Of a DNA stretch of 39,995 nt, positions 12,931 through 27,405 are shown piece by piece. Both the position numbers and the translations under genes were made by a program. Positions within the stretch are counted from its first letter, which is position 1; each line of letters begins with the position of its first letter. The stretch comes from an uncultured Candidatus Saccharibacteria bacterium (GTDB taxonomy: Bacteria > Patescibacteriota > Andersenbacteria > CAZYLA01), in assembly GCA_964648435.1 (NCBI GenBank), contig CAZYLA010000001.1:1-39995 (forward strand), written 5' to 3'. Below the pieces are notes generated by a model that saw only the letters and a program-made list of their open reading frames with translations, made no database searches and was not told the DNA's origin.

Positions 12931-13695
12931 ATGGCTGAAGAGTTAAAGCTTCGGGCAGAGAAGAGGCCTGAAGGCAAGAAAGCAAGCAAGATTCGGCGGG
13001 AAGACAAGATTCCCGCGATTTTATATGGGCGCAGGGTTAAAAATGTGCCTCTTCAAGTTGATTACAAGGATTTTGCTGATGTTTACGAGCGAGGCGGGGG
13101 AACTTCTTTGGTTTCATTGTGCTTAGGCAAAGGCGAAGAGCGCAAAGTTTTAATTCACGAAGTTCAAAAAGACCCGCTTTCGGGTAAATTTATTCACGCT
13201 GATTTTTATCAGGTGAAAATGACTGAGAAGTTAGTTGCCGAAGTGCCTCTTCGTTTCACCGGCAAATCAAAAGCCGTTAAAGATAAAGGCGGGATTTTAG
13301 TTAAAAACATTAGCGAAGTTGAAGTTGAGGCCTTGCCCCAAGATTTGCCCAAAGAAATTAAGGTTGATATTTCACCCCTTAAGGAGATTGATGATGTTAT
13401 TAAGATAAAAGATCTGAAAGTTTCTCCTAAGGTCGCGATTTTGGCGGATAAAGACGAAGTTGTTGCTGTGGTAACGCCGCCAAGAACAGAAGAAGAGCTG
13501 AAGGAGCTTGAGGAAAAACCTGAGGAAGCAGTGGAAGAAGTTGAAGGCATTAAAGAAGAAAAAGCCAAAGAAGGAAAAGAAGTCAAGGGCGCAGAAGAGG
13601 CAAAAGAAGGTGAAGAAGTTAAAGAAGGCGAAGAAAAGAAAGAAGCCGAAGCTGCTAAAGAAGGAAAGTCAGAAGAAGAGAAAGAAGGTAAATAG
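12931..13695 (+). CDS. rplY: Ribosomal protein L25/Ctc with a long Glu/Lys-rich C-terminal tail
   Basis: RREDKIPAILYG, VLIHEVQKDPLSGKFIHADF and VPLRFTGKSKAVK are typical of L25/Ctc. The tail is a low-complexity EEKAKEGKE repeat. Confidence 0.88.
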   Translation: MAEELKLRAEKRPEGKKASKIRREDKIPAILYGRRVKNVPLQVDYKDFADVYERGGGTSLVSLCLGKGEERKVLIHEVQKDPLSGKFIHADFYQVKMTEKLVAEVPLRFTGKSKAVKDKGGILVKNISEVEVEALPQDLPKEIKVDISPLKEIDDVIKIKDLKVSPKVAILADKDEVVAVVTPPRTEEELKELEEKPEEAVEEVEGIKEEKAKEGKEVKGAEEAKEGEEVKEGEEKKEAEAAKEGKSEEEKEGK

Positions 13696-13715
13696 AGTAT
13701 ATCGTAAATCGTTAC

Positions 13716-13761
13716 TATAGCGCCAAAAATCCGCCCCTGAAGGCGGATTTTTGGCGCTATA
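13716..13761. terminator. 20-bp hairpin terminator after rplY
   Basis: TATAGCGCCAAAAATCCGCC / GGCGGATTTTTGGCGCTATA with a 6-nt loop. It shares the core CCAAAAATCCGCC...GGCGGATTTTTGG with the hairpin at 21231-21277. Confidence 0.65.
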
Positions 13762-13836
13762 AAGGTTCCTTTCTGTTTTCCTCTTGACGAAATTACTACA
13801 TGTTAAGATAAATTTGTTACGGAAACGCAATGAAAT

Positions 13837-13971
13837 GTGTATTTTGCTAAAGTACTTCTCAGAGTTCTTGATAAAATGGTTGTGCCGGAAAAGGAACGTG
13901 CCAAAATCGCTAATAAACTTAGAACCTTAAAAGGAAAATTCAACGCTTTCCCGCAAACGCAATTTGACTGA
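13837..13971 (+). CDS. Candidate small ORF (44 aa from GTG, or 31 aa from ATG 13876)
   Basis: VYFAKVLLRVLDKMVVPEKERAKIANKLRTLKGKFNAFPQTQFD. A weak hairpin plus T-run follows (CCCGC-N6-GCGGG, 14008-14023, then GCGTTTTT). No recognisable family or clear SD. Confidence 0.2.
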   Translation: MYFAKVLLRVLDKMVVPEKERAKIANKLRTLKGKFNAFPQTQFD

Positions 13972-14064
13972 GTAATCCAGTTCTTGTCTTGAAGTTTCCG
14001 TTTTTGTCCCGCAATTTAGCGGGGCGTTTTTATTGCCCTGACCCCGAGCGCTAGCGAAAAAACA

Positions 14065-14097
14065 AAGACAGGCGGAGGACAGTCCTCCGCCTGTCTT
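14065..14097. terminator. Hairpin terminator after prmC
   Basis: AAAGACAGGCGGAGGA-CAG-TCCTCCGCCTGTCTTT. The core GCGGAGGACAGTCCTCCGC recurs at 37733-37757. Confidence 0.65.
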
Positions 14098-14109
14098 TAA
14101 AAAAGAGCT

Positions 14110-15009
14110 CTATTTTTGTTTTAAATGTAATATTCTTATTTTGCCGGACAAATCTTTTTTAAGTTCTGCTTTCATTTTTGGCAGGTTTTTCTTTGCCTCT
14201 AGAATTAACTCCAGAGATTGTTCAGGAGATGTCTCCAAGAAAATCTCACCGTTGGGTTTGAGGTATTTTGGTGCGGCCCTGAGGAGTTTTTTAATATAGA
14301 AAGATCCGTTTCTGCCGCCAAAAAGCGCTTTTCTGGGTTCAAACTTTAAATTTTTAAAATATTTCTGATAATCTTTATCGGAAATATAAGGAAGATTGGC
14401 GATTATTACATCGACTTTTTCTGATAGACAAGATAGAAGATTGCCTTTTAAAAATTTTATCCCGCACCTTTTTGCCGCTTTACGGCAAAAAGGTGCGGGG
14501 TTTATTCTTTTTGAGACGTGGTGGCGTCTGGCATTTGCGTGGGCGACTTTAAGAGCACTTTGAGAAATATCAGTTGCATAAATTTTGGCAGTTGGAAGCT
14601 TTTTGGCGATAGTGATGGCAATACAGCCGCACCCTGTGCCGATGTCTGCAATTTTAAGATTTTTCTTTTTAGCAATTTTAGATTTTAAAAAATATTCTAC
14701 AAGTTCTTCGGTTTCTGGTCTGGGAATTAAAACATTTTGATTAATTTTAAACCCAAGGCCGAAAAATTCTTTTTTTCCTAAAATATAAGCAAGGGGGAAT
14801 CTGGTAAGCCGTTTTTTAACAAGATGCTTAAATTTATTTTCAGTATTTTTGGAAATCTTTTTTTCTAAATTCTGAAAAAGATACTCTTTTGGCTTTTTAA
14901 TGGTATGGCACAAAAGAAGCTCGCTTTCTATTCGAGCTTCTTTGCTTATTTTTTGAAGTTTTTGTTCTCCTTTTTGGAGGAGACATTTGATATTTTTAGG
15001 CGATTTCAT
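14110..15009 (-). CDS. prmC: Release-factor glutamine N5-methyltransferase (HemK/PrmC)
   Basis: IPRPETE, DIGTGCGCIAI, IIANLPYI (NPPY variant). The true start is most likely MKSPKNIK (ATG at 15009); the longer track ORF runs into repeat copy C. Confidence 0.88.
   Translation of the reverse strand: MKSPKNIKCLLQKGEQKLQKISKEARIESELLLCHTIKKPKEYLFQNLEKKISKNTENKFKHLVKKRLTRFPLAYILGKKEFFGLGFKINQNVLIPRPETEELVEYFLKSKIAKKKNLKIADIGTGCGCIAITIAKKLPTAKIYATDISQSALKVAHANARRHHVSKRINPAPFCRKAAKRCGIKFLKGNLLSCLSEKVDVIIANLPYISDKDYQKYFKNLKFEPRKALFGGRNGSFYIKKLLRAAPKYLKPNGEIFLETSPEQSLELILEAKKNLPKMKAELKKDLSGKIRILHLKQK
14461..14499. repeat. 39-nt palindromic element inserted in-frame in prmC
   Basis: CCCGCACCTTTTTGCCG-CTTTA-CGGCAAAAAGGTGCGGG (17-bp arms). 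It equals exactly 13 codons (PAPFCRKAAKRCG) starting on a codon boundary. Confidence 0.8.
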
Positions 15010-15063
15010 AATCGGGGTGACAAAAAAGAAAATAGTTTTATAGAAAATCGAAATTCGTAATGG

Positions 15064-15139
15064 AGCTACTCGTTCCATAGAGACGTTAAGATTCATCCAT
15101 GATTTCCGTAGGAAAGCTTATCTATCTTCTGATATCCCC
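15064..15139 (-). repeat. Dispersed conserved upstream element, copy C
   Basis: Minus strand reads GGGGATATCAGAAGATAG ... GGAACGAGTAGCT. Ends 54 nt before the prmC ATG (15009). Confidence 0.7.
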
Positions 15140-15226
15140 AAGTCGAAACTCGAAACGAGTTTCGACTTTCCATTTTCGATAACGATTTTCCAGTTTTGAC
15201 ACAACGAATTTCTAACTTTAAGCAGT

Positions 15227-16267
15227 TTAGAATTTAGTGTTTTTTAAACTGCTTACTATTGGTTCAATATTCCCTGCCAAAATTCCTTCAAGATTGTGCC
15301 AGCTTTTTTTAATCCGGTGGTCAGTAAGCCGGTCCTGGGGAAAGTTGTAAGTCCGCACTTTTTCAGCGCGTTTAGCTGCGCCAATTTGGGTTCGTCTTTC
15401 TTTACCGCGTTTTTCGGCTTCTTGTTCTTGCATAATTTGATAAAGCCGGGAGCGCAGGATTTTAAGTGCTTTTTCTTTATTTCTACTTTGTGATTTTTCA
15501 TCTTGGCAGGAAACAGTAATTTTTGTTGGGAGATGGGTAACTCTGACCGCTGTTTCCACTTTGTTAACATGTTGGCCCCCAGGGCCACCAGCCCGAAAAA
15601 CTTCGACTTTCAGGTCCTCCTCCTTAATTTCAAAGTCAATTTTCTCAACTTGAGGCAAAACCGCTACTGTTGCTGTTGAAGTATGAATCCGTCCGCCTTT
15701 TTCTGTTTTTGGAATTCGTTGAACTCGGTGGACTCCGCTTTCTTGCATGAGAGTTTTATAGGCGTTTGGACCATTGATTTCAAAAATTATTTCCTTGAAG
15801 CCACCGATAGAAGTTCGGTTTGAATTTAAAATTTTAACGCTCCAGTTCTGATTCTCTGCAAATTTTGAGTACATCTTAAAAAGGTCCGCTGCAAAGAGAG
15901 CCGCTTCTTCGCCGCCAGTGCCAGCTCTAATTTCCATAATTAGATTGTCTGGAATTTTTTCTTTTCCTTCTTCCAAGAGTTTTTTAATTTCTTTTTCTAT
16001 TTTTTTCTTCTGGGAAGTTAGAGAGCTTACTTCTTCTTGGGCAAGAACACTAAGTTCACCCTTTTCAGTGTCGAGCATGTCCTGAGCTTCTCCTAAATTT
16101 TTTTCTATGCTTTCAAGTTCAATAATCTTTTCAGCAACCTCTTTAATTTCTCCGTATTTTGCAGCAAGACGAGCGGATTTTTTTCGGTCTTTAAAAATAT
16201 CTGGCTCTGCCAATTCTTTTTTTAGTTTTTCATACTCTTCTTTAATTTTAACAAGTTTTTTATCCAT
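15227..16267 (-). CDS. prfA: Peptide chain release factor 1
   Basis: PXT-type region RIPKTEKGGRIHTS, GGQ motif (RAGGPGGQHVNK). Start most likely MDKKLVKIKE (ATG at 16267). Confidence 0.93.
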   Translation of the reverse strand: MDKKLVKIKEEYEKLKKELAEPDIFKDRKKSARLAAKYGEIKEVAEKIIELESIEKNLGEAQDMLDTEKGELSVLAQEEVSSLTSQKKKIEKEIKKLLEEGKEKIPDNLIMEIRAGTGGEEAALFAADLFKMYSKFAENQNWSVKILNSNRTSIGGFKEIIFEINGPNAYKTLMQESGVHRVQRIPKTEKGGRIHTSTATVAVLPQVEKIDFEIKEEDLKVEVFRAGGPGGQHVNKVETAVRVTHLPTKITVSCQDEKSQSRNKEKALKILRSRLYQIMQEQEAEKRGKERRTQIGAAKRAEKVRTYNFPQDRLTDHRIKKSWHNLEGILAGNIEPIVSSLKNTKF

Positions 16268-16274
16268 AAAATTA

Positions 16275-16344
16275 CCCCTCATTTGAAAAGTCCTGACTCC
16301 ATCAACTCTGACACTATAAGTGCCAGGACTTTTCAAGCGAGGGG
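16275..16344 (-). other. Long imperfect hairpin filling the rpmE-prfA spacer
   Basis: 23-nt arms (16275-16297 and 16322-16344) pair at 20 of 23 positions (19 Watson-Crick plus one T-G on the plus strand), around a 24-nt loop. Confidence 0.6.
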
Positions 16345-16345
16345 G

Positions 16346-16603
16346 TTAAGTTTTTGATTTTTTGCCTTTTTTCTTTTTTGTCTTTTCTTTAGCGAGGCGT
16401 TCTTTTTTCTTCTTAAGAATTTCTTTAAAGCGGTCAACCCGGCCGGCGGTGTCAACCAGTTTTTTGTCACCAGTATAAAAAGGATGGCAGGCAGAGCAAA
16501 TCTCCACGTGCATTTTAGGAACCGTGGACTTGGTTTTGATTACATTACCGCAGGAGCAAGTAATCGTGGCTGGTCCGTATTTAGGGTGAATGCCTTTTTT
16601 CAT
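16346..16603 (-). CDS. rpmE: Ribosomal protein L31 with a Lys-rich C-terminal extension
   Basis: MKKGIHPKY ... CSCG ... [10 protein letters not shown] is typical of Zn-binding type A L31. Confidence 0.9.
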
Positions 16604-16779
16604 AGTAATTTAATTGTAACATATCTAGGGACTTTTTTCAAGTTTAAAAAGTAGTTACAAGATTCTAAAATTTAACCTCTAAATTCTAAATAAATCCAAA
16701 ACTCAGAAATTCAAAGCTCAAAATCCAAAAATATTTTCAGAGTTTAGAATTTAGATTTTTTGAATTTAGGTAAAAAAGA

Positions 16780-16812
16780 GCCCTGTTTCAAAATTTTCTT
16801 TCAAAACAGGGC
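16780..16812 (-). terminator. Rho-independent terminator of the orphan gene
   Basis: Minus strand reads GCCCTGTTT-N15-AAACAGGGC followed by TCTTTTTT. Confidence 0.7.
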
Positions 16813-16838
16813 ATGGAGATGTTCCTGCCTAGCTATCG

Positions 16839-17381
16839 CTAGGCAGAGACGATCACGTTGCCGGTTGGGGTGGTCTTGACTTTGACCGGCCCTTTGGTGT
16901 TGCTGGTACTGGAGCCCTTGTCCGTGACTGGCGGGATTTCGGCAGGCTCATTGTCTGTCGTGTCCTTCGTGTCCGTGCGGATCCTTGCGACCGCGAACAG
17001 ACGGGGCAGGGTCACCTCTTTGTCTTCCTCATCGCGGCCTTTGTACCGCAACCGGATCAGGTTTCCGCAACGGTCCTCCAGTCGGGCACCCGGCTTTACA
17101 ACAACGATGTTTTCGCCGATCCACAGAAACAAACCATCCATTTGCAGGGGGTCTGCTCCCGGAACCAGGTTGATGATGAGGAGCTTACTCTCGTTGTCCG
17201 CCAGAAATTCGGCGGAGTACGGTTTCCACTGACCACGGTAGCGGTCATGCGTGAGCACGGGCACGCTGTGCACCCATGACCTGATTGTGTTCTTCGCGTT
17301 GGGGAACCGAAAATACACCTCACTACCCGGCCTTACATAGGGGGCATTGCTGTTCTTCTCCGTCACGTTGACAACTGGCAT
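16839..17381 (-). CDS. Orphan 180-aa protein encoded by a compositionally foreign (high-GC) segment
   Basis: ATG preceded by GGAGGAGG SD. Three hand-counted 60-nt blocks give 60, 62 and 53 % G+C, versus 25 % for block 16621-16680. No TM helix and no motif I recognise. The C-terminal third is a low-complexity T/K/D/P-rich stretch. Confidence 0.75.
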   Translation of the reverse strand: MPVVNVTEKNSNAPYVRPGSEVYFRFPNAKNTIRSWVHSVPVLTHDRYRGQWKPYSAEFLADNESKLLIINLVPGADPLQMDGLFLWIGENIVVVKPGARLEDRCGNLIRLRYKGRDEEDKEVTLPRLFAVARIRTDTKDTTDNEPAEIPPVTDKGSSTSNTKGPVKVKTTPTGNVIVSA

Positions 17382-17475
17382 GATACCTCCTCCTTTTCCC
17401 TCTTTTCTTTTTTAGAGGGAAGTTATAGAGTGTAGTGTTCACGTCAGGATTTATACTATTCTATCCTGACATTAC

Positions 17476-17504
17476 ATCTTAGCATATTTAAAAAAATTTG
17501 TCAA
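17476..17504 (-). promoter_or_regulatory. Near-consensus promoter driving the orphan gene
   Basis: Minus strand reads TTGACA (17504-17499), 17-nt spacer, TAAGAT (17481-17476); about 95 nt upstream of the ATG. Confidence 0.6.
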
Positions 17505-17612
17505 GGAGGAATTTATAAAAAATGCCATTTTGTAGCTAAGATTAGCTAAAAATTGCGAAAGACAGCATTGCGGCTTAGAGTGTTTTGAGTCGCAATTTTA
17601 GAATAAAGAGAA

Positions 17613-17654
17613 AGCGCTGAAAAATCACGCGGCGCCGCGTGATTTTTCAGCGCT
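17613..17654. repeat. 42-nt perfect palindrome between the orphan-gene promoter and the rpsB promoter
   Basis: AGCGCTGAAAAATCACGCGGC / GCCGCGTGATTTTTCAGCGCT. Confidence 0.9.
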
Positions 17655-17698
17655 AAGTCAACAGTCTCAATTGTTAACCGTCAATCGTTATCATTCTC

Positions 17699-17727
17699 TT
17701 GCCAAAATCTTGTGCATCTGCTATATT
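17699..17727 (+). promoter_or_regulatory. rpsB promoter with an extended -10
   Basis: TTGCCA, 17-nt spacer ending in TGC, TATATT; 40 nt upstream of ATG 17768. Confidence 0.6.
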
Positions 17728-17767
17728 AAAATTAGAAAATTATTAGTCCATATTTCTTTTTTTTATT

Positions 17768-18514
17768 ATGACTACCACCAAAGAAAAAACAGCTTCTGAA
17801 ATTTCAATAACAGACCTCCTTAGAGCTGGAGCTCATTTTGGTCACAAGCGTTCGCGCTCTCATCCAAAAATGGGAGTATATGTTTACACTACTCGCGACA
17901 GTATTCAGATTTTGGATCTTAATAAAACCCTCAAGAAACTCAATGAGGCACTTTCTTTTGTTTCTAAAGTTGCAAAAAGGGGCGGCATTATTCTTTTTGT
18001 GGGTACAAAGCGCCAGGCAAAAAATATCGTTAAAGAAGGCGCTCTTTCTTGCAAAATGCCCTATGTTACTGAACGCTGGCTTGGAGGGACATTAACAAAT
18101 TTTGAAACAATCAAAAAAAGCATTTCTAAACTGGAAGAATTAGAAGGAAAAAAGATGAGTAAGGCATGGAAAGAATATACTAAAAAAGAAAGGCTTCTTG
18201 TTGAGCGGGAGATTAAGAAATTAAATCAAAATTTGGAAGGGATTCGCAAAATGGATAAATTGCCAGACGCAGTTTTTATAGTTGGTGCAAGTAGTGACAA
18301 GACGGCAATTAGAGAGGCAAACCGCAAGGAAATTCCAATTATTGCTTTAGCAGACACTGACTGTGATCCTACCAATATTGACTATTTAATTCCAGCCAAT
18401 GATGACGCGGTAAAAATAATTAAAATGATAGTGAAATTAGTGGCTGAAAAAATTAAAGAGTCGAAAGGATTACCTGAAGAAAAAAAGAAAATTAAAAAAG
18501 AAGATGAGAAGTAA
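17768..18514 (+). CDS. rpsB: Ribosomal protein S2
   Basis: LLRAGAHFGH, ILFVGTKRQA, ERWLGGTLTNF, DAVFIV...ALADTDCDP. Confidence 0.95.
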   Translation: MTTTKEKTASEISITDLLRAGAHFGHKRSRSHPKMGVYVYTTRDSIQILDLNKTLKKLNEALSFVSKVAKRGGIILFVGTKRQAKNIVKEGALSCKMPYVTERWLGGTLTNFETIKKSISKLEELEGKKMSKAWKEYTKKERLLVEREIKKLNQNLEGIRKMDKLPDAVFIVGASSDKTAIREANRKEIPIIALADTDCDPTNIDYLIPANDDAVKIIKMIVKLVAEKIKESKGLPEEKKKIKKEDEK

Positions 18515-18518
18515 AAAG

Positions 18519-19016
18519 ATGACTAACAAAGAAGACATTAAAAAATTGCGAGAAAAAACTGGTCTTGGTATTCTTGAATGTCAGAAACTTTTAAAGGAAG
18601 CCGGTAATGATTTTGGCAAGGCCTTAGAAGCAGCTCAAAAAGCCCTAAAAGAAACTGCTTTGAAAAGAGGAGAAAAAGAGACCAAGGAAGGCGTTATTGT
18701 TTCCTATATTCACCCGAATAGAAAAATCGGAGTTCTTTTAGAACTTCTTTGCGAGACAGATTTTGTTGCTAAAAACAAAGAATTTTTAGAGCTTGCCAAT
18801 AACTTGGCAGTCCATGTTGCGGCTCTTGCCCCAGAATTTTTAAGTGTCGAGGACATGCCCAAAAATTTGTCAAAAGAAGAAAAAGAGGCAAAAGCGCTTC
18901 TTTCCCAGGATTATTTCAAAGAGCCGAGAAAAAAAGTGAATCAGCTAATTGCTGAAAAAATTCAGAAACTTGGTGAAAATATTCGGGTAGGCAGATTTGT
19001 GAGATATCAGTTATAA
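18519..19016 (+). CDS. tsf: Elongation factor Ts, short form (alternative start 18504)
   Basis: IKKLREKTGLGILECQKLLKEAGNDFGKA (UBA-like N-terminus), SYIHPNRKIGVLLEL. Only about 165 aa. Confidence 0.88.
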   Translation: MTNKEDIKKLREKTGLGILECQKLLKEAGNDFGKALEAAQKALKETALKRGEKETKEGVIVSYIHPNRKIGVLLELLCETDFVAKNKEFLELANNLAVHVAALAPEFLSVEDMPKNLSKEEKEAKALLSQDYFKEPRKKVNQLIAEKIQKLGENIRVGRFVRYQL

Positions 19017-19206
19017 GCTAACTCGGGAGGGGAAAACCTGAAAGAGGGGTTTTTCTTCCCGATCCTCCCAACATTTGTGCTTTGCACAAATGTTGGGGCT
19101 GTCTCCCCCTTTTAAGGGGTCTTCGTACCAAAATAAATTCGAGGGCTTAGGCAGATTTTTCCCAACACCTTATGTCGGAAAAAATCTCATTTATATTTCA
19201 TTACTT

Positions 19207-20004
19207 ATGTCTAAAATTGCTGAAGTTAAAATTCATTTTTGGGATAAACCGCGTTTTTATAGAGTGGAGGGTATAGAAAAGTTAGTTAAAGGAGACACAG
19301 TTATTGTTAAAACTGAGCATGGTCTTGAAGCTGGTGAGGTTCTAACAGTTCATAAGCGCTCCAAAGGTTTTACTGTAGAAAAGGAAAAAATTTCTCGCAA
19401 AGCAACCCAGAAAGATTTAGAGGTTATTACTTGCCACAGCGCAAAAGAGGCAGAAATCCTTGAGAAAGCCCGGAAGAGGACGCGCGAACTTAAGTTGCCC
19501 ATTAAAATCATTGATGTCTCTTTTACTGTTTCAGGCAATAAACTAATTTTTGCTTTTATTGCCGAAGGCCGGGTTGATTTTCGGGAGCTTGTTAAACGCC
19601 TTTCAAAAGACTTTCAGCGATTAATTCGGATGCAGCAAATTGGCTCTCGAGACGAAGCCAAAGAGAGTGGCGGTATTGGTATCTGCGGCCGCTCGCTTTG
19701 TTGCGCATCTTTCTTAAAAAATATTGAGAGTATTACTACTGATATGGCCCGGACTCAGCAGATTATTAGACAGGGCAACCAGCGGATTACTGGCGTTTGC
19801 GGCCGGCTAATGTGCTGTCTTGCTTTTGAAGAAGAGCAGTACTTGGAGCTTGCAAAAAACATGCCCGGAATTGGTGAAGAAGTAAAAACTCGCGAAGGAA
19901 GAGGAGAAGTTGTCGACCGTAATATTTTAAAACAAACTGTCACTGTCGAGATTCCAAAGAAAGACGAAAAAATAAAAATTGAAATCCCGGTTTTAGAGTT
20001 ATAA
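19207..20004 (+). CDS. PSP1 domain protein (YaaT/RicT-like)
   Basis: FAFIAEGRVDFRELVKRL, IGICGRSLCCASFL, GVCGRLMCCLAFE. Start most likely MSKIAEV (ATG 19207); the track extension covers intergenic hairpins. Confidence 0.8.
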   Translation: MSKIAEVKIHFWDKPRFYRVEGIEKLVKGDTVIVKTEHGLEAGEVLTVHKRSKGFTVEKEKISRKATQKDLEVITCHSAKEAEILEKARKRTRELKLPIKIIDVSFTVSGNKLIFAFIAEGRVDFRELVKRLSKDFQRLIRMQQIGSRDEAKESGGIGICGRSLCCASFLKNIESITTDMARTQQIIRQGNQRITGVCGRLMCCLAFEEEQYLELAKNMPGIGEEVKTREGRGEVVDRNILKQTVTVEIPKKDEKIKIEIPVLEL

Positions 20005-20321
20005 AGTTTTATTGCATTATAATAACCCTTGAAGTTCTAAAAACAAATTTCCTTAAAACCACTTATTATAAAATCCCAAATCCAAAGCTCAAATATCAAA
20101 TCAAATCCAAATGGCTAAATGTCAAAAATATAAATAATAAATATTTTGGATTTTGAGCTTTGAGCTTGATTTGAAATTCTTGCCCGCCTAAATTTTGCGA
20201 AGCAAAACTTTGGCGGGTGAAGATTTTGACATTTGGATTTAATAATACTATTTTTACCCATAAAACTTTCTTTGAGAGAAAATTCTTCTTTATAACGATA
20301 ATACTATCAAACTAAACATAA

Positions 20322-21212
20322 ATGATGTATAACCTAATCCCAGTGTTAATAATCATTGCCTCACTTTTTTTAATTATTTTTTTGGTGCTCCGGCGAATGC
20401 CTGAAGCTAAAGGGAAAGTCGAGAAAGAAAAAGAAGAGGTAAAAGAGATGCCAAAAGAAAGCGAGGAAGAACTTCTTAAAGCTCAAGAGAAAAGAATTCA
20501 GCTTAAAAAACCCTTTCTTTGGCGTCTCAAAAAAAGAATCTTGCAAGTAAAAGCAGGAAAAGAGAAGAAAAAAAGGTGGTTTCGTTCGCTTACGCCGCCG
20601 CGAAAGCCGCGGTCGTACCCCCAACCATCTTTAAAGGAGAGGGAGAAAGTAGAAAAAAAAGAGGTGATTGTTGCGTCACAAAAGACCGCGGCGGCAAGAC
20701 CCGCCTTTACTAAAAGAAAAATGGTTAAGATGGAGAAAGTCGTTGCTCCTCTTAAAAAAGGGGTTTATTTAGGAAGTCAGCTTTTTAAAAAGAAACGGCT
20801 TGCCAAACAAGAAATTGAGCTTCTTGAACAACTTGATCTTCGACCGGACGATTACCAAATTTTAAAGGAGTTAAGCCAAGTTTATATTAAAAGAAAAAAA
20901 TATGAAAAAGCCGCTGAGATGCTAAAGCGGTTGATTGAGGTTAAACCAACTGATTTTTATACTTACGGCGATCTTGGATTTGTAAGTTTAAAACTTGGTA
21001 ATTACACTGAGGCGGTTGAAGCATATAAAATGGCGGTTGACCATGATCCCAAAAACGTGGAATATTTGAAAAATTTAGCGATGATTGCAGAAAAACTTGA
21101 TAATATGCCCATGCTGAAAGCAACTCTCGAACGTCTTTTAGAGATTGAGCCAGATAATAAAAAAATAAAAGTTCAATTAAAAGAACTTGAAAAACAATCA
21201 AAATTATTGTAA
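20322..21212 (+). CDS. Membrane-anchored TPR-repeat protein
   Basis: N-terminal TM helix, a Lys-rich linker, and C-terminal TPR-like repeats (YEKAAEMLKRLIEVKP, YTEAVEAYKMAVDHDP). Confidence 0.6.
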   Translation: MMYNLIPVLIIIASLFLIIFLVLRRMPEAKGKVEKEKEEVKEMPKESEEELLKAQEKRIQLKKPFLWRLKKRILQVKAGKEKKKRWFRSLTPPRKPRSYPQPSLKEREKVEKKEVIVASQKTAAARPAFTKRKMVKMEKVVAPLKKGVYLGSQLFKKKRLAKQEIELLEQLDLRPDDYQILKELSQVYIKRKKYEKAAEMLKRLIEVKPTDFYTYGDLGFVSLKLGNYTEAVEAYKMAVDHDPKNVEYLKNLAMIAEKLDNMPMLKATLERLLEIEPDNKKIKVQLKELEKQSKLL

Positions 21213-21230
21213 ATAGAACCTTCTATGCCA

Positions 21231-21277
21231 CTGCCCACCAAAAAATCCGCCTTTTTGGCGGATTTTTTGGTGGGCAG
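21231..21277. terminator. 21-bp perfect hairpin built from an inverted copy of the tRNA-Tyr 3' end
   Basis: CTGCCCACCAAAAAATCCGCC-TTTTT-GGCGGATTTTTTGGTGGGCAG, 19 nt after the stop of the TPR gene. Confidence 0.65.
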
Positions 21278-21287
21278 GGAGGGATTC
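21263..21287 (-). repeat. 25-nt direct duplicate of the tRNA-Tyr 3' end plus trailer
   Basis: TTTTTTGGTGGGCAGGGAGGGATTC is identical to 21410-21434. Confidence 0.9.
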
Positions 21288-21414
21288 CTCCTCGCTCCAA
21301 CTCGGAGCCGGGGCGCTACACCCAAAAGCTCCTTTGGGTCGCTTTTTTCTCGCGCCCTTCGAATCCCTCTATCTTTCAATAACCAAAAAAAGATTACTTA
21401 AAAGCAATCTTTTT

Positions 21415-21500
21415 TGGTGGGCAGGGAGGGATTCGAACCCCCGAAGGCGTAAGCCACGTGGTTTACAGCCACGCCCGTTTGACCACTTCGGTACCTACCC
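21415..21500 (-). tRNA. tRNA-Tyr (GUA), class II long variable arm, CCA encoded
   Basis: Minus strand: GGGTAGG TA CCGAAGTGGTCAAACGG G CGTGG CTGTAAA CCACG TGGCTTACGCCTTC GGGGG TTCGAAT CCCTC CCTGCCC A CCA. Confidence 0.9.
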
Positions 21501-21560
21501 TTTAGGTAATTTACAGAATACCAGATTTTTTAGCTTTTTTCAAGCTCCGCATCTTTTTCA

Positions 21561-21584
21561 GTCGGGGGCGGGATTTGAACCCGC
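21561..21584 (-). pseudogene. Orphan tRNA 3' fragment (T arm plus acceptor 3' strand)
   Basis: Minus strand: GCGGG TTCAAAT CCCGC CCCCGAC. No matching 5' half, D arm or anticodon arm lies upstream. Confidence 0.6.
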
Positions 21585-21611
21585 GTCCTTAAGTTGCTGG
21601 TCAAATTTGTA

Positions 21612-21687
21612 TGGAGCCCAAGAGCGGATTCGAACCGCTGACCTACTCCTTACCATGGAGTTGCTCTACCGACTGAGCTACTTGGGC
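21612..21687 (-). tRNA. tRNA-Thr (GGU), CCA encoded
   Basis: Minus strand: GCCCAAG TA GCTC AGTCGGTA GAGC A ACTCC ATGGTAA GGAGT AGGTC AGCGG TTCGAAT CCGCT CTTGGGC T CCA. Confidence 0.92.
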
Positions 21688-21761
21688 GCGAGAGGGTTTG
21701 ACTGTTTACAGTCTATCATTATTTTAGGTGACTTTTCAAGTTGTTTTTCTTGAAAAATAAC

Positions 21762-21790
21762 TTGAAAAATGCGTTCAGAGATGTTAGAAT
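21762..21790 (+). promoter_or_regulatory. Promoter for the plus-strand composite tRNA transcript
   Basis: TTGAAA, 17-nt spacer, TAGAAT; ends 12 nt before 21803. Confidence 0.55.
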
Positions 21791-21802
21791 AAATGTCATA
21801 AG

Positions 21803-21826
21803 GCCGGCGTAGCTCAATGGTAGAGT
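21803..21826 (+). pseudogene. tRNA 5' third (acceptor 5' strand plus D arm) with no contiguous anticodon arm
   Basis: GCCGGCG TA GCTC AATGGTA GAGT. The D arm is near-identical to that of the nested tRNA-Thr. Confidence 0.65.
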
Positions 21827-21835
21827 CCCGACAGA

Positions 21836-21908
21836 GCCCGCCTAGCTCAATTGGTAGAGCAACGCTCTTGTAAAGCGTAGGTTGTCAGTTCGATCCTGAC
21901 GGCGGGCT
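21836..21908 (+). tRNA. tRNA-Thr (UGU), no encoded CCA, nested between tRNA fragments
   Basis: GCCCGCC TA GCTC AATTGGTA GAGC A ACGCT CTTGTAA AGCGT AGGTT GTCAG TTCGATC CTGAC GGCGGGC T. Confidence 0.9.
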
Positions 21909-21925
21909 CTGTCGGGATAAACAGT

Positions 21926-21955
21926 AGGTTGTGGGTTCGAATCCCTCCCCCGGCT
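21926..21955 (+). pseudogene. tRNA 3' fragment (variable loop, T arm, acceptor 3' strand)
   Basis: AGGTT GTGGG TTCGAAT CCCTC CCCCGGC T. One T-stem mismatch; 6 of 7 complementary to 21803-21809. Confidence 0.6.
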
Positions 21956-21975
21956 GAAAAAGGTGTGGGGTAAAT

Positions 21976-22041
21976 AGGTCGTCAGCTTGTCCCGCACCCT
22001 AGCGAAGCTAGTGGTGCGGGGTTTGATCCTGACCGCCGGCT
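21976..22041 (+). pseudogene. tRNA 3' fragment with a 36-nt segment inserted in the T loop
   Basis: AGGTC GTCAG [21986-22021, containing hairpin 21991-22020] TTTGATC CTGAC CGCCGGC T. The acceptor strand is 7 of 7 complementary to 21803-21809. Confidence 0.6.
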
Positions 22042-22062
22042 CCGCTATAAAAGAAAATTACA

Positions 22063-23781
22063 ATGTCTCGAGATTTTATTTTTAGTATGCTTTTGGGAAT
22101 ATTTGTGGGGCTCCTTTTGGGTGTGCTCGGATTTGCTCTTTTTCAAAATTTATACAAAAGCGAGATATCGGAGGGTTTAGAAGCAGAACTTGCAGAAGTG
22201 GCTCAGGAGGCAGAAAAAATTGCTTTTAAGGAAAAAACCCAAGAAGAACCTCAAGAAAATACTAATGAAGGATCTCCTGCGGTTTTATACGCTGAAGTTG
22301 AAGAGCGCCAAGGGAAAGAATATTGGCAAAGAATTTTCCTAAAAAAATCGCCCGAGGAAGAAGTTAGGGAAATTGATTTACCTGACAATGCTTTTCATTT
22401 TGAAATGCCAATTCTGTCGCATAATGAGATATTTTTTTATGCCGCCGATGGTAATACTGAGAGTCCGGAAAATGACCAGCTTTTTCTTTTTCGAATGGGG
22501 CTTGATGGCAGAGAGGCAGAAGAAGTTTTGCCGTATACGCCCGGCGTTTCGCCATCAGGTTTTTTGCCCTCACCTGACCGCAAAAAAATTGCTTACTTTC
22601 TAGACTCGCGAGTTAATGAAGGCAGTGAAATATGGGTTTACGACACTGAAAATGGAATAAATTTTGTAGCAGTTGAACTCCTTGACAAGCAAGTTAATAA
22701 AAATATTGTCTCCTGGAGCGCAGATTCGAGCCGCCTTTACTTTTTAAAGAAAATGAAACCCTATTTGTACATTCTTCACTGGGTTGATATTAAGGCAGCT
22801 CCCAAAATTCAAACTCAAGAATTTCAAAATATTTATTGGGAGAGCATAAATTGGCAAAATCTTCTTAAAGGTGAACTCTCATTTTTTACTCTTTCGCCCG
22901 ATAAAAAATATATTGCCTATCTTCCGCCTCTTAAAAATCAAATTAATTTCATTAGAACAAGTGATGGCGTTATTACCAGCTTTACGCCCACATCTTCTAT
23001 TAAGGAGATTCTTTGGCATCCGAATTCAGCTGAGCTAATTTATACTCAAAAAGAAAATCCTGGAATTTTTAAAATGAATTTAGCTCTTCGACGCGAAGAG
23101 AAGTTTATTGATCCTGGACCACTCACTGGCACTCGGGCGCAGGGCAGCGTTTCCGTACCTCTTACCCACACTCAGGTGCAGGACAGCGCTAAAGATGTTG
23201 AAATAAAAAATATTCAAATCACGCCAGACGGCAGTTTTTTAGGGTATATTAAAGAGAAAGAAGATTTTTCCGAAATTATCTTGAATGATCTAGAAAGTGG
23301 CGAGAGATATACAATTGCCCGCGAAGAAGAAGCTTCGGAAAAATTGCGTCTTCTTTCTCTTTCCTATTTGTCAAGGGAAAGACCTTTTCAAAAAGAGATT
23401 GTCTCTGAACTTCAAGTAAGGCGTGTTGAAGAAGGCACTTTGGAAGAGGATGAGATAAGACAAGTTATTGGTTATATCACTGCTAATATTAATGCGATTG
23501 CTCCAGAAAAAAGAGAGAGTGGTTGGGAAGTCAAAAGATTCTGGTTTATTGATTCTCGGAATCTTTATGTTGATTTTGAGAGTGGGTCTGATTTAAGGCG
23601 CGTTTTTCTTTCTTTTGACATCTTGACAGAAGAAGAAGCAGGATATAGAATAAAGGCCTATTTTGAAGCTGTGGGTGATAAGTGGGTTTTAAGAAAGGGT
23701 CAGGTGCTTCAAGAAGAGCAAAGTTTGATACTCTATACTTTTAATAAAAACACAAATAGTTGGGAACGAAACAATAATTAA
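22063..23781 (+). CDS. Membrane-anchored hypothetical protein, probably beta-propeller (TolB/PD40-like)
   Basis: N-terminal TM helix. Recurrent motifs of the type SPD-K-IAY / -PDG-FLGY, as in PD40/WD40-like propellers. Confidence 0.5.
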   Translation: MSRDFIFSMLLGIFVGLLLGVLGFALFQNLYKSEISEGLEAELAEVAQEAEKIAFKEKTQEEPQENTNEGSPAVLYAEVEERQGKEYWQRIFLKKSPEEEVREIDLPDNAFHFEMPILSHNEIFFYAADGNTESPENDQLFLFRMGLDGREAEEVLPYTPGVSPSGFLPSPDRKKIAYFLDSRVNEGSEIWVYDTENGINFVAVELLDKQVNKNIVSWSADSSRLYFLKKMKPYLYILHWVDIKAAPKIQTQEFQNIYWESINWQNLLKGELSFFTLSPDKKYIAYLPPLKNQINFIRTSDGVITSFTPTSSIKEILWHPNSAELIYTQKENPGIFKMNLALRREEKFIDPGPLTGTRAQGSVSVPLTHTQVQDSAKDVEIKNIQITPDGSFLGYIKEKEDFSEIILNDLESGERYTIAREEEASEKLRLLSLSYLSRERPFQKEIVSELQVRRVEEGTLEEDEIRQVIGYITANINAIAPEKRESGWEVKRFWFIDSRNLYVDFESGSDLRRVFLSFDILTEEEAGYRIKAYFEAVGDKWVLRKGQVLQEEQSLILYTFNKNTNSWERNNN

Positions 23782-23793
23782 CTATTAATTGTC

Positions 23794-23949
23794 GTGAGTC
23801 AAGAAAATTTGGTAAAATTAAGGTGTAGCGAGTGTGGGGAGATTAATTATTATACCACGCGGAATAAAAAACTTATCAAAGAAAAGTTGGAGCTAAAAAA
23901 ATTCTGCCCTCGCTGCCGCAAGCACACGCTTCACAAAGAAGCAAAATAG
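23794..23949 (+). CDS. rpmG: Ribosomal protein L33 (GTG start, 51 aa; not in the ORF track)
   Basis: Hand translation: [51 protein letters not shown]. This is the classical L33 CxxC...CxxC pattern with a KHTLHKE ending. Confidence 0.85.
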
Positions 23950-23975
23950 CGGTTTTACTGTCTTAAAGATAAAGC

Positions 23976-24022
23976 CGCGCCCAGTTAGAAATTTTTCAAT
24001 GAAAAATTTCTAACTGGGCGCG
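23976..24022 (+). other. 22-bp perfect leader hairpin overlapping tRNA-Trp positions 1-7
   Basis: CGCGCCCAGTTAGAAATTTTTC-AAT-GAAAAATTTCTAACTGGGCGCG. The right arm ends with GGGCGCG, which is the tRNA-Trp 5' acceptor strand. Confidence 0.85.
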
Positions 24023-24089
24023 TAGTTAAATGGTATAATAACGGTCTCCAAAACCGTTGTTGGGGGTTCGATTCCCTCCGCGCCTGCCA
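24016..24089 (+). tRNA. tRNA-Trp (CCA), CCA end encoded
   Basis: GGGCGCG TA GTTA AATGGTAT AATA ACGGT CTCCAAA ACCGT TGTTG GGGGT TCGATT CCCTC CGCGCCT G CCA (G1-U72 wobble). Confidence 0.88.
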
Positions 24090-24117
24090 ATGAATTATAA
24101 TACCCTGGATTTGCCTG

Positions 24118-24154
24118 CCCCGCACTTTTGAGCGGTAGTGAAAATAGTGCGGGG
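24118..24154. repeat. GC-ended small palindrome of the CCCGCAC...GTGCGGG family
   Basis: CCCCGCAC-N21-GTGCGGGG, 29 nt after tRNA-Trp. Confidence 0.7.
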
Positions 24155-24169
24155 AATCCTAGCGCCCCT

Positions 24170-24217
24170 GCCAAGAAGAGCCCAGTTTTTGCACGCAAAA
24201 ACTGGGCTCTTCTTGGC
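24170..24217. terminator. 21-bp perfect hairpin downstream of tRNA-Trp
   Basis: GCCAAGAAGAGCCCAGTTTTT-GCACGC-AAAAACTGGGCTCTTCTTGGC. It is preceded by GCGCCCCTGCCA, which resembles the tRNA-Trp 3' end GCGCCTGCCA. Confidence 0.6.
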
Positions 24218-24424
24218 CAGTCATAGCTTTAGATGAAGGTGGGTCAAAAAGCAGAGATTTTGTAAATCTTCGCTTTTTTGCTTGGCAAAAATGAATTCGT
24301 TAGTATTTTTGCGGAACTTGCTATTTTAGTAAGTTCTTTTTTTGAGAATAATCTTTTGATATAATAAGATGTAGAAAACAACAGCGTTGTTTACAGTTCT
24401 TCAGGGTAAAAATAATAGAGACAA

Positions 24425-24952
24425 ATGCGTAAAAAATGTTCTATAGATGAGATGAGTTTTAAAAAGTGCTTTTGGATTGTTGGGGTTGTGACAGTTGTCT
24501 TTTTTATTCTGATTTTTTGGCAGCTCCAAAAAGCGCCGTTTGAAAAAGAAAGTATAAGCGGTTTTTTGTCCGAGGGGCGAAAATTTTATATTACTGACGT
24601 GGTTGACGGTGATACTGTAATGATTAAGGGCGATGTTTTGGTAAGATTAATAGGTATTGATACTCCGGAAAAAGGAGAGGCCTGCTATAGCGAAGCAAAA
24701 GAAAGATTAGAAGAACTTATTTTAAATCAGTATGTTTTTCTTGTGAAGGATAAGACTAATGCTGATTCTCACGGCCGGTTGCTTCGCTATGTCTTCTTAG
24801 GGAATAAAAATATTAATTTAAAAATGGTCGAGGAAGGATATGCTCAGCCAATGCCCATTCAGCCGGATTTAAAATATGCTCGGGAAATAAAAGAAGCTGC
24901 GGATAGAGCAAAAGCAGAAAAAAAGGGTTGTTTGTATAAAGAAGAGGATTAA
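24425..24952 (+). CDS. Membrane-anchored SNase/thermonuclease homologue (second paralogue)
   Basis: TM helix, then VVDGDTVMIKGDVLVRLIGIDTPE ... GRLLRYVF ... MVEEGYA. Confidence 0.8.
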   Translation: MRKKCSIDEMSFKKCFWIVGVVTVVFFILIFWQLQKAPFEKESISGFLSEGRKFYITDVVDGDTVMIKGDVLVRLIGIDTPEKGEACYSEAKERLEELILNQYVFLVKDKTNADSHGRLLRYVFLGNKNINLKMVEEGYAQPMPIQPDLKYAREIKEAADRAKAEKKGCLYKEED

Positions 24953-25093
24953 TTTTTTTGAGATTTTTTGGGTGCGGGCGGCACCGACTTAAAGTCGGCG
25001 CCGCCCACGCTTTTTTAGGATTTGACGCTTCTTTTCTTTTTTGCTACGCTAGTTTTGTAAGAACTTTTCGTTTTAAGAAGGAGGGAAACGCTC

Positions 25094-26017
25094 ATGAATA
25101 TCGACATTTTCAGAGCATTGTCAGATAAAATTGATTTCCGTGAGGTAATTGCTATTATTCGTTACGGCAACTGCCGAGAAGAGGCCTTTGATATTAATCT
25201 TTTGATTATTCTTAAAAACACAGCCGTGCCAAGGCCGCGTAGTCTAGAAAGCCCCCTTGATGTTAGAGAAGCCACTGAGAGTCATTTCTTAGAGAGATTG
25301 TTTCTTCTTGATCCTATTTTTACAGAAGCTGTCCTTGGAGGTTCCTTAATTTTTGGTGATCCTTACTATTTAGACAGCCCCTCTTTTGATGAAGCGACGC
25401 TCGCCCAGATAGCTTCTAAAGCGAAAACTCGCGAAATTCAAATTACCCTTGCTCTTCTTCAGGGGCTTGAGGAAAGCATCCGGCTCTATGGAGGGGGATC
25501 TTTAGTTAGTGCCCTTGTAGAAAAAGAGGAGGAGGAAAAAAATAGGAAACGAATAGACGAGATAGGAGGACCCCTTAACTATTGTCTAATTCAGGTCAAA
25601 AAAGCGATAGATGATTTTAAGAGAACTGAGAGAAAAGATGGTGCAAGGACAAAACTACTTCGGACTGATCCTTCAGAGGAAACGATAGGACTTTGCCGCA
25701 AAATGAGTGAAGAGATGCTTAAAAACGCACACGATAAAATCGAAGATTATGGCGCGTCACACGATAAATCAGTTCTTCTTCAAGCTCTTGTAGATTTGTC
25801 CTATTCTATTAGTTGTTACTATTTTGCCAGGTACTATAGAGAAGAGAAAGGACGCAAGATAGTCACCCTTTCGGAGCTTATTGAGAAAAACCCTGAAACA
25901 ATGCTTGGGCCAATAATTTCCGCGGTTAGAAGATATAAGAGAGCGCGGGGAGAGCTTGAAGAATCCTTTGTAAGGAGAAAACTTGAGGATTGGCAAAAAG
26001 TCATTAAGGCAACTTAA
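25094..26017 (+). CDS. Hypothetical protein with a minimal nucleotidyltransferase-like N-terminus and a helical C-terminal domain
   Basis: RYGNCREEAFDINLLIIL resembles the G-[SN]-x(6-10)-D-x-[DE] Pol-beta-type NTase motif, but with N in place of the second acidic residue. GGAGG SD upstream. Confidence 0.4.
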   Translation: MNIDIFRALSDKIDFREVIAIIRYGNCREEAFDINLLIILKNTAVPRPRSLESPLDVREATESHFLERLFLLDPIFTEAVLGGSLIFGDPYYLDSPSFDEATLAQIASKAKTREIQITLALLQGLEESIRLYGGGSLVSALVEKEEEEKNRKRIDEIGGPLNYCLIQVKKAIDDFKRTERKDGARTKLLRTDPSEETIGLCRKMSEEMLKNAHDKIEDYGASHDKSVLLQALVDLSYSISCYYFARYYREEKGRKIVTLSELIEKNPETMLGPIISAVRRYKRARGELEESFVRRKLEDWQKVIKAT

Positions 26018-26123
26018 AATTAAAGTTGCCTTTTTCTTCCCCTGCCCTTGCCTGTGGAATTTTAAAATTCCTCAGGCAGGGGCAGGGGATTTCTTTTTGC
26101 TCCTTTTTTATGGTAAAATAAGA

Positions 26124-27293
26124 ATGATGCTTCGATTTCCAAAAAATTTCTTGTGGGGGACAGCAATGGCTGCTCACCAGGTTGAGGGAAATAATACTCA
26201 CAATGACTGGTGGTATTTAGAGCAGAAAGGATTAACGGAAAAATCAGGTGAGGCGTGCGACTATTATCACCGCTTTAAAGAGGACCACTGCCTTATTGAA
26301 GATTTAAATAATAATGCTTTTCGCTTTTCAATTGAATGGTCGCGGATTGAGCCAGAGGAGGGGAGTTGGAACGAAAAAGAAATAGAACACTATCGCGCTT
26401 TAATTCAGGATTTAAAAAAACGCAATTTGGAAGTTTTTATTGGGTTGCATCATTTTACAACCCCTCTTTGGCTTTATAAAAAAGGGGGGATGGCCGTGCA
26501 AAAAGCGCCATTTTATTTTGCTAGATTTGCTGAGAAAGTCGCCAAAGAGTACGGCGGGTTGGTTGATTTTTGGATAACAATTAATGAGCCCTTAATTTAT
26601 GCTCATATTTTAGGCAAGGAACCCTTTCATCAGAACCTATTAAAGAGATTGCTTGTTATTTTTCGCCTTATAAAAGCCCATAAGCTTGCTTATATAAAAA
26701 TTAAAGAAACTTTAGGCATAAAAACAAAGGTCGGTCTTGTAAAGAACAATATTTATTTTGAACCTACAAGAAAGTTTTTTTTAGACAAGGCTCTTGTAAG
26801 AGTAGTTGACTATTTTTTTAATAAGTGGTTCTTAAACCAAATTAAAAATTATTTAGATTTTATTGGCTTAAATTATTACTTTCACAATTTAGTTAGTTTT
26901 CCCTTTAGAAAAACTTACAAAATTGAGCGGGATACTTATCAAGCAACCAGTGATATGGGATGGGAAATATATCCAGAGGGAATTTATCATGTTTTAAAAG
27001 GGCTTAAGAGATATAAAAAACCAATTTATGTGACAGAAAACGGTTTGGCAGATGCTTTTGATAAAAAACGGATTAAATTTATTAAAGATCACTTGCGGTT
27101 TGTTCATCAAGCTATTCAAGAAGGTGTTGATGTCCGCGGCTATTTTCACTGGTCTTTAATGGACAATTTTGAATGGCGAAACGGCTTTGGTCCCCGTTTT
27201 GGTTTATACGAAGTTGATTATGCCACTCAAGAGCGAAAACCGAGGCCCTCTTCCTATGTTTATGCCAAGATCTGCCATGACAATGGCGTTTAA
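26124..27293 (+). CDS. GH1 beta-glucosidase
   Basis: FPKNFLWGTAMAAHQVEG, ITINEP (acid/base), YVTENG (nucleophile). Start taken at ATG 26124; the track extension covers the upstream terminator hairpin. Confidence 0.88.
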   Translation: MMLRFPKNFLWGTAMAAHQVEGNNTHNDWWYLEQKGLTEKSGEACDYYHRFKEDHCLIEDLNNNAFRFSIEWSRIEPEEGSWNEKEIEHYRALIQDLKKRNLEVFIGLHHFTTPLWLYKKGGMAVQKAPFYFARFAEKVAKEYGGLVDFWITINEPLIYAHILGKEPFHQNLLKRLLVIFRLIKAHKLAYIKIKETLGIKTKVGLVKNNIYFEPTRKFFLDKALVRVVDYFFNKWFLNQIKNYLDFIGLNYYFHNLVSFPFRKTYKIERDTYQATSDMGWEIYPEGIYHVLKGLKRYKKPIYVTENGLADAFDKKRIKFIKDHLRFVHQAIQEGVDVRGYFHWSLMDNFEWRNGFGPRFGLYEVDYATQERKPRPSSYVYAKICHDNGV

Positions 27294-27377
27294 TAGCAAA
27301 TCGCTCTTTTTTGAGCCAACAGGCCGGAGCTCCTTAAAAATCTTGTCGAAAACACCTTATTTAATGTTAGCCAAAAT

Positions 27378-27405
27378 AAATGGCTCACAAGCTTGTGAGC
27401 CATTT
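27378..27405. terminator. Perfect 28-nt palindrome after the GH1 gene
   Basis: AAATGGCTCACAAGCTTGTGAGCCATTT. Confidence 0.55.

Follow-up and report, generated by a model that had tools for sequence, protein, structure and literature searches.

Two described kinds of gene come closest to the one considered here. The phage moron, a concept of Hendrix and Juhala, is an extra gene lying between adjacent genes that brings its own promoter and terminator and deviates in GC content (PMC2920897), and ORFans such as those of Escherichia coli are described as AT-richer than their genomes (PMC3514957). The present case is an orphan gene on the minus strand of contig CAZYLA010000001.1 (assembly GCA_964648435.1) from an uncultured Candidatus Saccharibacteria bacterium, located between rpmE and rpsB in the stretch of 39,995 nucleotides that was analysed as a whole (hereafter the window). 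Like a moron, the gene is interposed between two neighbours that adjoin each other in relatives, it possesses its own promoter and terminator on sequence-level evidence, its GC content is 57.3% against 37.9% in the remainder of the window, and its slot is apparently a hotspot, as contigs L038 and L005 from other Patescibacteria suggest. Unlike a moron, it resides in a cellular chromosome among core housekeeping genes, has no phage, viral or plasmid relatives, and appears to have been inherited vertically for a long time; the unit is judged to be moron-like and not a moron. With ORFans it shares its short length, its restriction to one lineage and its fast evolution (43% identity between orthologues versus 75% for ribosomal protein S2), whereas it differs from them in being nearly 20 points GC-richer than its genome and in remaining so through saturating divergence. 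The explanation preferred here, with modest confidence, is an old, vertically inherited, lineage-specific monocistronic unit whose GC content is held by a gene-specific force.

The gene and the signals predicted around it are as follows.

16839-17381, minus strand: protein-coding open reading frame (ORF) of 180 aa (P0001), GC 57.3%, with 56/43/73% at codon positions 1/2/3 (GC1/GC2/GC3)
16980-17381, minus strand: globular part of the product, residues 1 to ~134, for which an all-beta composition of ~10 strands plus a single short helix is predicted
16842-16979, minus strand: predicted disordered tail, residues ~135-180, rich in T/K/D/P and unalignable with the homologue P0002 except for the last residues
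17437-17560, minus strand: conserved regulatory block (upstream palindrome, A/T tract, promoter and hairpin 1 of the 5' untranslated region, UTR), 79% identical over 125 nt to positions 352-476 of the homologous contig L002
17526-17555, minus strand: 14-nt inverted repeat CAATTTTTAGCTAA / TTAGCTACAAAATG, ~20-50 nt upstream of the -35 hexamer, found by an inverted-repeat scan
17476-17504, minus strand: predicted sigma-70-type promoter TTGACA-17-TAAGAT with a TG-extended -10, matching 10 of 12 consensus positions
17441-17472, minus strand: 5' UTR hairpin 1 with a 10-bp stem AUGUCAGGAU/AUCCUGACGU, from the minimum free energy fold
17398-17419, minus strand: 5' UTR hairpin 2, CCCUCU...AGAGGG, immediately 5' of AAAAGGAGG, from folding
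17386-17393, minus strand: Shine-Dalgarno (SD) sequence GGAGGAGG, 4 nt ahead of the ATG, read from the sequence
16825-16846, minus strand: 9-bp hairpin enclosing the stop codon, from folding
16772-16812, minus strand: predicted intrinsic terminator, a 14-bp stem (16812-16780) followed by a T-run, from a terminator scan

The orphan ORF is the stretch of 543 nt with the highest GC content in the window, the runner-up being the tRNA cluster at 49%. Compared with the 32 other ORFs of the window, it has a z-score of 6.5 for GC and of 8.9 for GC3 (0.729 against a mean of 0.336), and its tetranucleotide distance lies about 7 standard deviations above their mean. The composition switches at both ends of the ORF to that of the AT-rich flanks, and the change is complete within ~20-30 nt. 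A first-pass annotation made from the sequence letters had described the gene as compositionally foreign on the basis of hand counts of G+C (36/60, 37/60 and 32/60 in three blocks of the gene, 15/60 in a neighbouring block). All four counts proved exact, the ORF is the highest point in the GC profile of the window, and the claim of a GC outlier is confirmed by the z-scores and the tetranucleotide distance. The sharp boundaries that it described are likewise abrupt at the ORF ends, but they measure ~20-30 nt and not ~15 nt. A replication-origin or skew artefact was rejected, since the skew tracks the coding strand and no switch occurs anywhere in the window.

Protein searches, which together covered ~15 billion proteins, recovered one true homologue of P0001. 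When 1.84 billion representatives were searched exhaustively with phmmer, P0002, a protein of 188 aa, was retrieved with an E value of 1e-34, and the two sequences are 43% identical over 141 residues aligned without gaps. A word-indexed search of 5.8 billion clusters matched the orphan protein only to itself, and neither a profile search nor a metagenome scan returned a homologue beyond P0002. The nucleotide identities between the two genes at codon positions 1, 2 and 3 are.54,.64 and.40, the nonsynonymous divergence (dN) is 0.53, the synonymous divergence (dS) about 1.6-1.8 and dN/dS ~0.3. This substitution pattern by codon position, together with the dN/dS of ~0.3, indicates a translated gene under purifying selection rather than an RNA gene or a chance ORF, and on these grounds the orphan gene is almost certainly real and protein-coding. 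P0001 and P0002 constitute a new protein family of two members, whose expression architecture is conserved. No match for the orphan protein or for the two-member profile was found in Pfam, NCBIfam, PHROGs, PADLOC or the sequences of the PDB, so that the earlier statement that the product carries no assignable motif holds, and Rfam yielded nothing for the orphan region, whether at the gathering threshold or at a relaxed one. Among the rejected candidates, P0004 is repetitive and, judged from its sequence alone, resembles an out-of-frame translation artefact, while the antisense ORFs at 16858-17232 (plus strand) of the window and 546-1007 (minus strand) of L002 lie in different registers and were treated as by-products of high GC.

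The gene for P0002 is located on L002, a 1.1-kb Logan contig from SRR22388041, where the ORF has 56.6% GC against 24% in the 334 nt upstream and is divergent from the start of rpsB, as in the window. The first 60 residues of S2 encoded there are 75% identical to the window S2, and the next-best S2 in the same protein collections reaches 58% over this N-terminal stretch and 54-55% overall. A scan of genome contigs with S2 revealed no close sister genome, the best match being 54% identical, and a word-index search with S2 agrees. The orphan family thus comes from a lineage of Patescibacteria that has hardly been sampled, the closest complete S2 in public data being only 54-55% identical. At the DNA level, the window and L002 are 74.7% identical in the 5' end of rpsB and 79% identical in the regulatory block, and the orphan ORF is hardly alignable. 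Third positions in conserved codons are identical in 25 of 60 cases in the orphan and 23 of 43 in rpsB, and dS is ~2.2 for rpsB and likewise saturated for the orphan.

The control signals are shared by both loci. In a promoter scan of positions 16300-18000, the three best matches were the promoters of the orphan, rpmE and rpsB, and L002 carries TTGACA-17-TATCAT, which preserves the -35 hexamer and, 17 nt away, a TG-extended -10 in the same position. Hairpin 1 begins within a few nucleotides of the predicted transcription start, and its joint folding with L002 by RNAalifold retained all 10 pairs, including one compensatory change from C-G to U-A and one change from G-U to A-U; its motif showed no above-chance recurrence elsewhere in the window. 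Hairpin 2 appears in L002 as CCCGC...GCGGG in the same place, again followed by AAAAGGAGG, with the structure kept and the sequence different. The SD of L002 is GGAGGGAG in an unchanged position, and its stop codon also falls within a small hairpin, GGAGC-CUAAA-GCUCC. Every signal listed in the first-pass annotation, namely the promoter, the two 5' UTR hairpins, the SD, the stop-codon hairpin and the terminator, was located as claimed. The shared control region with compensatory changes in its hairpin indicates that the two loci are orthologous and that their expression architecture is under constraint, and these signals suggest that the unit is probably strongly expressed.

Stem-loops at the 5' terminus stabilise mRNA in the E. 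coli ompA leader and in the Bacillus subtilis aprE and ermC leaders. The orphan leader resembles them in having one hairpin near the predicted 5' end and a second before a strong SD, both of them conserved with compensatory changes, and differs in that the hairpin repeat might just as well function at the DNA level as an operator and the transcription start is a predicted one. Hairpin 1 may stabilise the mRNA at its 5' end or function as an operator. The inverted repeat at 17526-17555, whose equivalent site in L002 is partly palindromic, is a candidate regulator-binding site.

Further repeats flank the unit. A 42-nt perfect palindrome, AGCGCTGAAAAATCACGCGGC/GCCGCGTGATTTTTCAGCGCT, occupies 17613-17654 between the orphan promoter and the rpsB promoter; read on the minus strand it has the score of a terminator, L002 lacks it, and it may insulate the two divergent units from each other. 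On the other side, AT-rich inverted and direct repeats, TCTAAATTCTAAA / TTTAGAATTTAGA, are found at 16678-16690 and 16743-16755 (and 16758-16770) between the orphan terminator and the rpmE promoter, which reads TTGAAA-17-TACAAT at 16641-16613.

The gene order DnaE, FtsW, L25, PrmC, RF1, L31, then S2, Tsf and a TPR protein is common to more distant Patescibacteria. On six of their contigs (L004, L014, L039, L040, L049 and L050), rpmE is directly divergent from rpsB across an empty gap of 136-372 nt, compared with 1164 nt in the window, which bears out the insertion between rpmE and rpsB proposed in the first-pass annotation. No homology to the promoter block was detected in these six relatives or in L038. 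The latter holds an unrelated gene of near-normal GC in the same slot (4429-4824, minus strand), encoding a multi-pass membrane protein of 131 aa, and the rpmE-rpsB slot seems to accept different small genes. The simplest history would be a single insertion into an ancestor shared by the window and L002 lineages, with vertical descent thereafter, and a single old insertion in that shared ancestor is regarded as likely.

The same annotation had considered the acquisition to be recent. This claim failed, because the homologue occupies the same locus behind the same promoter and 5' UTR in an AT-rich relative, the closest one known, at saturated dS. It had also named homologues widespread at this locus in related low-GC genomes as an argument against recent acquisition; a homologue is indeed present at the same locus in a low-GC relative, but in one relative only. 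Its high-GC donor finds a weak fit in the remote match to P0003, a protein of a bacterium with 63% GC, while no close donor-side homologue emerged. The window contains no integrase, transposase, reverse transcriptase or tyrosine recombinase, the borders of the cassette show no flanking direct repeats or tRNA target, and no relative of the orphan was retrieved from phages and plasmids (tblastn) or from viral contigs (protein profile and promoter pattern). With a recently transferred islet the gene shares its atypical composition, and it differs in being present at the same locus in its closest known relative at a dS of ~1.6 and in lacking mobility signatures. It is also unlike an integron cassette, as no tyrosine recombinase occurs in the window, the neighbour is rpsB and the 3' hairpins are terminator-like, although no formal attC model was run. 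The case cautions that atypical GC content need not mean recent horizontal transfer.

Two other relatives carry GC-enriched orphans. In L005, another Patescibacteria metagenome-assembled genome whose S2 is 50% identical, an unrelated orphan of 224 aa lies between rpsB and tsf on the opposite strand (6791-7465, minus strand) with a GC content of 49.8% against 36.3% for the locus. It is equipped with a TTGACA-17-TATGCT promoter, an AGGAGGG SD and a terminator of a hairpin plus T8, and has no Pfam, PDB, phage or viral match. In L050, a 218-kb contig with the same gene order, an ORF of 122 aa at 14358-14726 (plus strand) begins like a lipoprotein (...LVGC). Its GC content is 54% where the locus has 41%, and it has neither a recorded Pfam family nor a match in Rfam. 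These orphans are a hint of a wider pattern, albeit one of few cases that may be coincidence.

An assembly chimera or contamination was ruled out by several assemblies and by the same arrangement in a second species. A MEGAHIT contig from ENA (L001/L045) corresponds to positions 13551-27381 and spans both composition boundaries, and its sole difference from the window over 13.8 kb is a C/T single-nucleotide polymorphism at 15205 in the prmC-prfA intergenic region. At the contig level, a second assembly therefore covers both of the junctions at which the first-pass annotation had proposed a read-level chimera check. The 3' boundary is further spanned by Joint Genome Institute (JGI) and Logan contigs (L003/L043 and L042) with 100% identity. 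The recurrence of the entire arrangement in another organism is the strongest reason for rejecting a chimera. Two short-read contigs (JGI and Logan) end at 17335 inside the orphan ORF, and one Logan contig starts at 17625 inside the 42-nt palindrome. An ENA contig end was also seen at 16729, in the AT-rich repeats beyond the orphan terminator; the breaks at 17335 and 16729 may reflect reduced coverage or differences between strains in the region of the cassette.

The product of the orphan gene has no visible transmembrane helix or signal peptide, and its tail is rich in T/K/D/P and looks disordered, both as noted at first reading. Two AlphaFold2 runs on the two-sequence alignment, each with a different sequence first, gave an identical secondary-structure pattern with a predicted local distance difference test score (pLDDT) of only ~35, so that the models themselves are unusable. 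The globular part has an isoelectric point of 9.1-9.2 in both orthologues, and the residues conserved between P0001 and P0002 are mostly Pro, Gly, aromatic and charged. At the C-terminus, the motif V-[IL]-V-[SG]-A is kept in both proteins and could, as a speculation, be a docking or turnover signal. The alignment contains no conserved His/Cys and no catalytic motif, on which account the product might serve in binding or as a scaffold and not be an enzyme of the metal-dependent or Cys/His type, a guess to be taken as doubtful at best.

The sole outside similarity connects residues 39-100 with the C-terminal half of a ~150-aa repeat in P0003, a Wzy_C-like membrane protein of 1477 aa from a polysaccharide cluster of the 63% GC organism, whose own gene has a GC3 of 0.73. 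The match scores E 2e-6 library-wide in phmmer, 36 bits in BLAST, and 85% with E 6e-6 in hhalign; P0002 alone gave no significant match to P0003, and the repeat itself could be assigned to no entry in Pfam or PDB. The orphan is like this repeat in the aligned residues and in the GC3 of ~73% of both genes, and unlike P0003 in that only ~60 residues are matched and that it has no membrane or signal segment. As a lead and not a finding, the orphan may derive from a piece of a GC-rich gene for a repeat-domain envelope protein.

The question of why the GC content stays high turns on the neutral sites. According to the amelioration argument reportedly made by Lawrence and Ochman, the neutral sites of a transferred gene drift toward the composition of the host, and with synonymous divergence saturated, they would be expected near the host GC3 of ~0.30-0.43. 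The window copy instead has a GC3 of 0.73 and the L002 copy one of 0.63. GC content peaks in the unalignable disordered tails, with 60% GC and a GC3 of 0.78 in the window and 64% and 0.69 in L002. Among 39 four-fold sites, the distribution of difference classes is compatible with both copies being drawn independently from a GC-rich composition at stationarity (chi-square p=0.32), and it includes 7 G<->C differences against 1.1-3.0 predicted by neutral decay (P=0.03 to 8e-5) in a model with an ancestral GC3 of 0.85-0.95 and host-like mutation. Runs of at least 6 A/T number 1 and 3 in the two orphan ORFs, versus 36-69 per 543 nt in host genes. The GC-rich tails, the G<->C turnover and the scarcity of A/T runs despite saturation suggest that the GC content of the orphan is on balance actively maintained.

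The leading guess as to the cause is selection for a long-lived transcript poor in A/U tracts, which would fit the 5'-terminal stem-loop and the double hairpin at the 3' end. If the composition is indeed selected, a minimal genome would here show selection on the nucleotide content of one particular gene, probably by way of its mRNA. A broader version, in which GC-richness is a selected property of the unit, by escape from AU-targeted RNases or as a dual-function RNA, and perhaps part of a wider habit in Patescibacteria of GC-rich orphan cassettes beside rpsB or other core genes, is possible though rather doubtful.

In full, the preferred explanation would begin with an insertion that occurred once between rpmE and rpsB in the ancestor of at least two deeply diverged AT-rich Patescibacteria lineages. 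The near-consensus promoter with its extended -10 would fire, giving a transcript that starts at the conserved 10-bp stem-loop and carries a second stem-loop just ahead of the strong SD, with the stop codon within a hairpin and then the intrinsic terminator. Its translation would yield a soluble, basic, predicted all-beta domain of ~134 aa followed by a fast-evolving disordered tail with the conserved hydrophobic end V-x-V-[SG]-A. The high GC would probably be held by a gene-specific force, for which selection on a transcript with few A/U runs and resistance to decay is the leading candidate.

Other histories account for part of these observations. An old acquisition from a very GC-rich donor could have been followed by slow amelioration, with no force maintaining GC and the remainder a historical residue. 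The absence of the gene from more distant relatives and its remote similarity to a gene of the 63% GC organism would suit such a course, and the GC3 of 63% in L002 is reachable from a start of at least 90% if dS is near its lower bound. This nevertheless seems unlikely in view of the saturated dS, of the 7 four-fold G<->C differences against the 1.1-3.0 expected, and of the GC3 of 73% in the window copy and 78% in its unconstrained tail. Moreover, GC3 is not below the prediction from GC1 and GC2, the opposite of what an ameliorating gene is said to show under the Muto-Osawa and Lawrence-Ochman relations for the three codon positions. The view taken in the first-pass annotation could also be extended to recent independent acquisitions in each lineage from related high-GC donors, since each copy resembles a native gene of a ~57% GC genome and divergence inside GC-rich genomes would equally yield G<->C turnover. 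Such acquisitions are improbable, as the copies share their insertion point, ORF boundaries, AT-rich promoter, hairpins and SD, with the 79% identity running into homologous rpsB flanks, while no donor-side homologue appeared among the proteins searched, phages, plasmids and viral contigs, and no integrase, transposase, tRNA target or flanking direct repeats accompany the gene.

That the GC-rich stretch is mainly a structured or dual-function RNA is very improbable. RNA genes often account for GC islands in genomes rich in AT, the second GC peak of the window is the tRNA cluster, and the L002 ORF folds far better than codon-shuffled controls (z=-5.3). The window copy, however, reaches a z of only -1.6, local hairpins are out of register between the copies, Rfam yielded nothing at either threshold, and the substitution pattern and the open frames of 180 and 188 codons with strong SDs point to protein coding. 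A mobile cassette targeting the rpsB neighbourhood, whether a phage-derived moron, an integron-like cassette or a free-standing homing gene, would explain the moron-like anatomy (own promoter and terminator, odd GC, position between genes adjacent in relatives) and the variable slot, with its unrelated genes in L038 and near rpsB in L005. It is nonetheless highly improbable given the lack of phage, plasmid or viral relatives, of a recombinase or nuclease motif, of an integrase in the window and of terminal repeats on the cassette, and given the same gene with the same boundaries in both lineages at saturated dS.

Several points weigh against the preferred explanation of an old unit with maintained GC. 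The test for GC maintenance comprises 39 sites in two sequences under an assumed mutation model, and the contrast in codon-shuffle folding between the two copies (z -1.6 in the window, -5.3 in L002), with hairpins out of register, lends selection for mRNA structure no consistent backing. The well-expressed rpsB, tsf, rpmE and L25 are not GC-rich, which makes general translational selection unlikely and would leave any selective force to act on the orphan alone. The contig bearing the homologue is only 1.1 kb long, and vertical inheritance is drawn from this one relative. The transcription start and expression strength are predictions from the DNA letters, both structure predictions failed at a pLDDT of 35, and, with no match to a family or solved structure, the functional guess is almost without direct support.

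Elsewhere in the window, two staphylococcal-nuclease-type genes are present, one at 243-1262 (plus strand) fused to a lamin-tail domain and the other at 24425-24952 (plus strand), which fits a DNA-scavenging lifestyle. The window's single phage-like hint is an ORF of 381 aa beside dnaE (4313-5458, minus strand), which matches a Baseplate_J-like Pfam family weakly (E 9e-7) and lies 11 kb from the orphan. Ribosomal protein L25, encoded at 12931-13695 (plus strand), bears a long low-complexity C-terminal extension rich in K/E/G.

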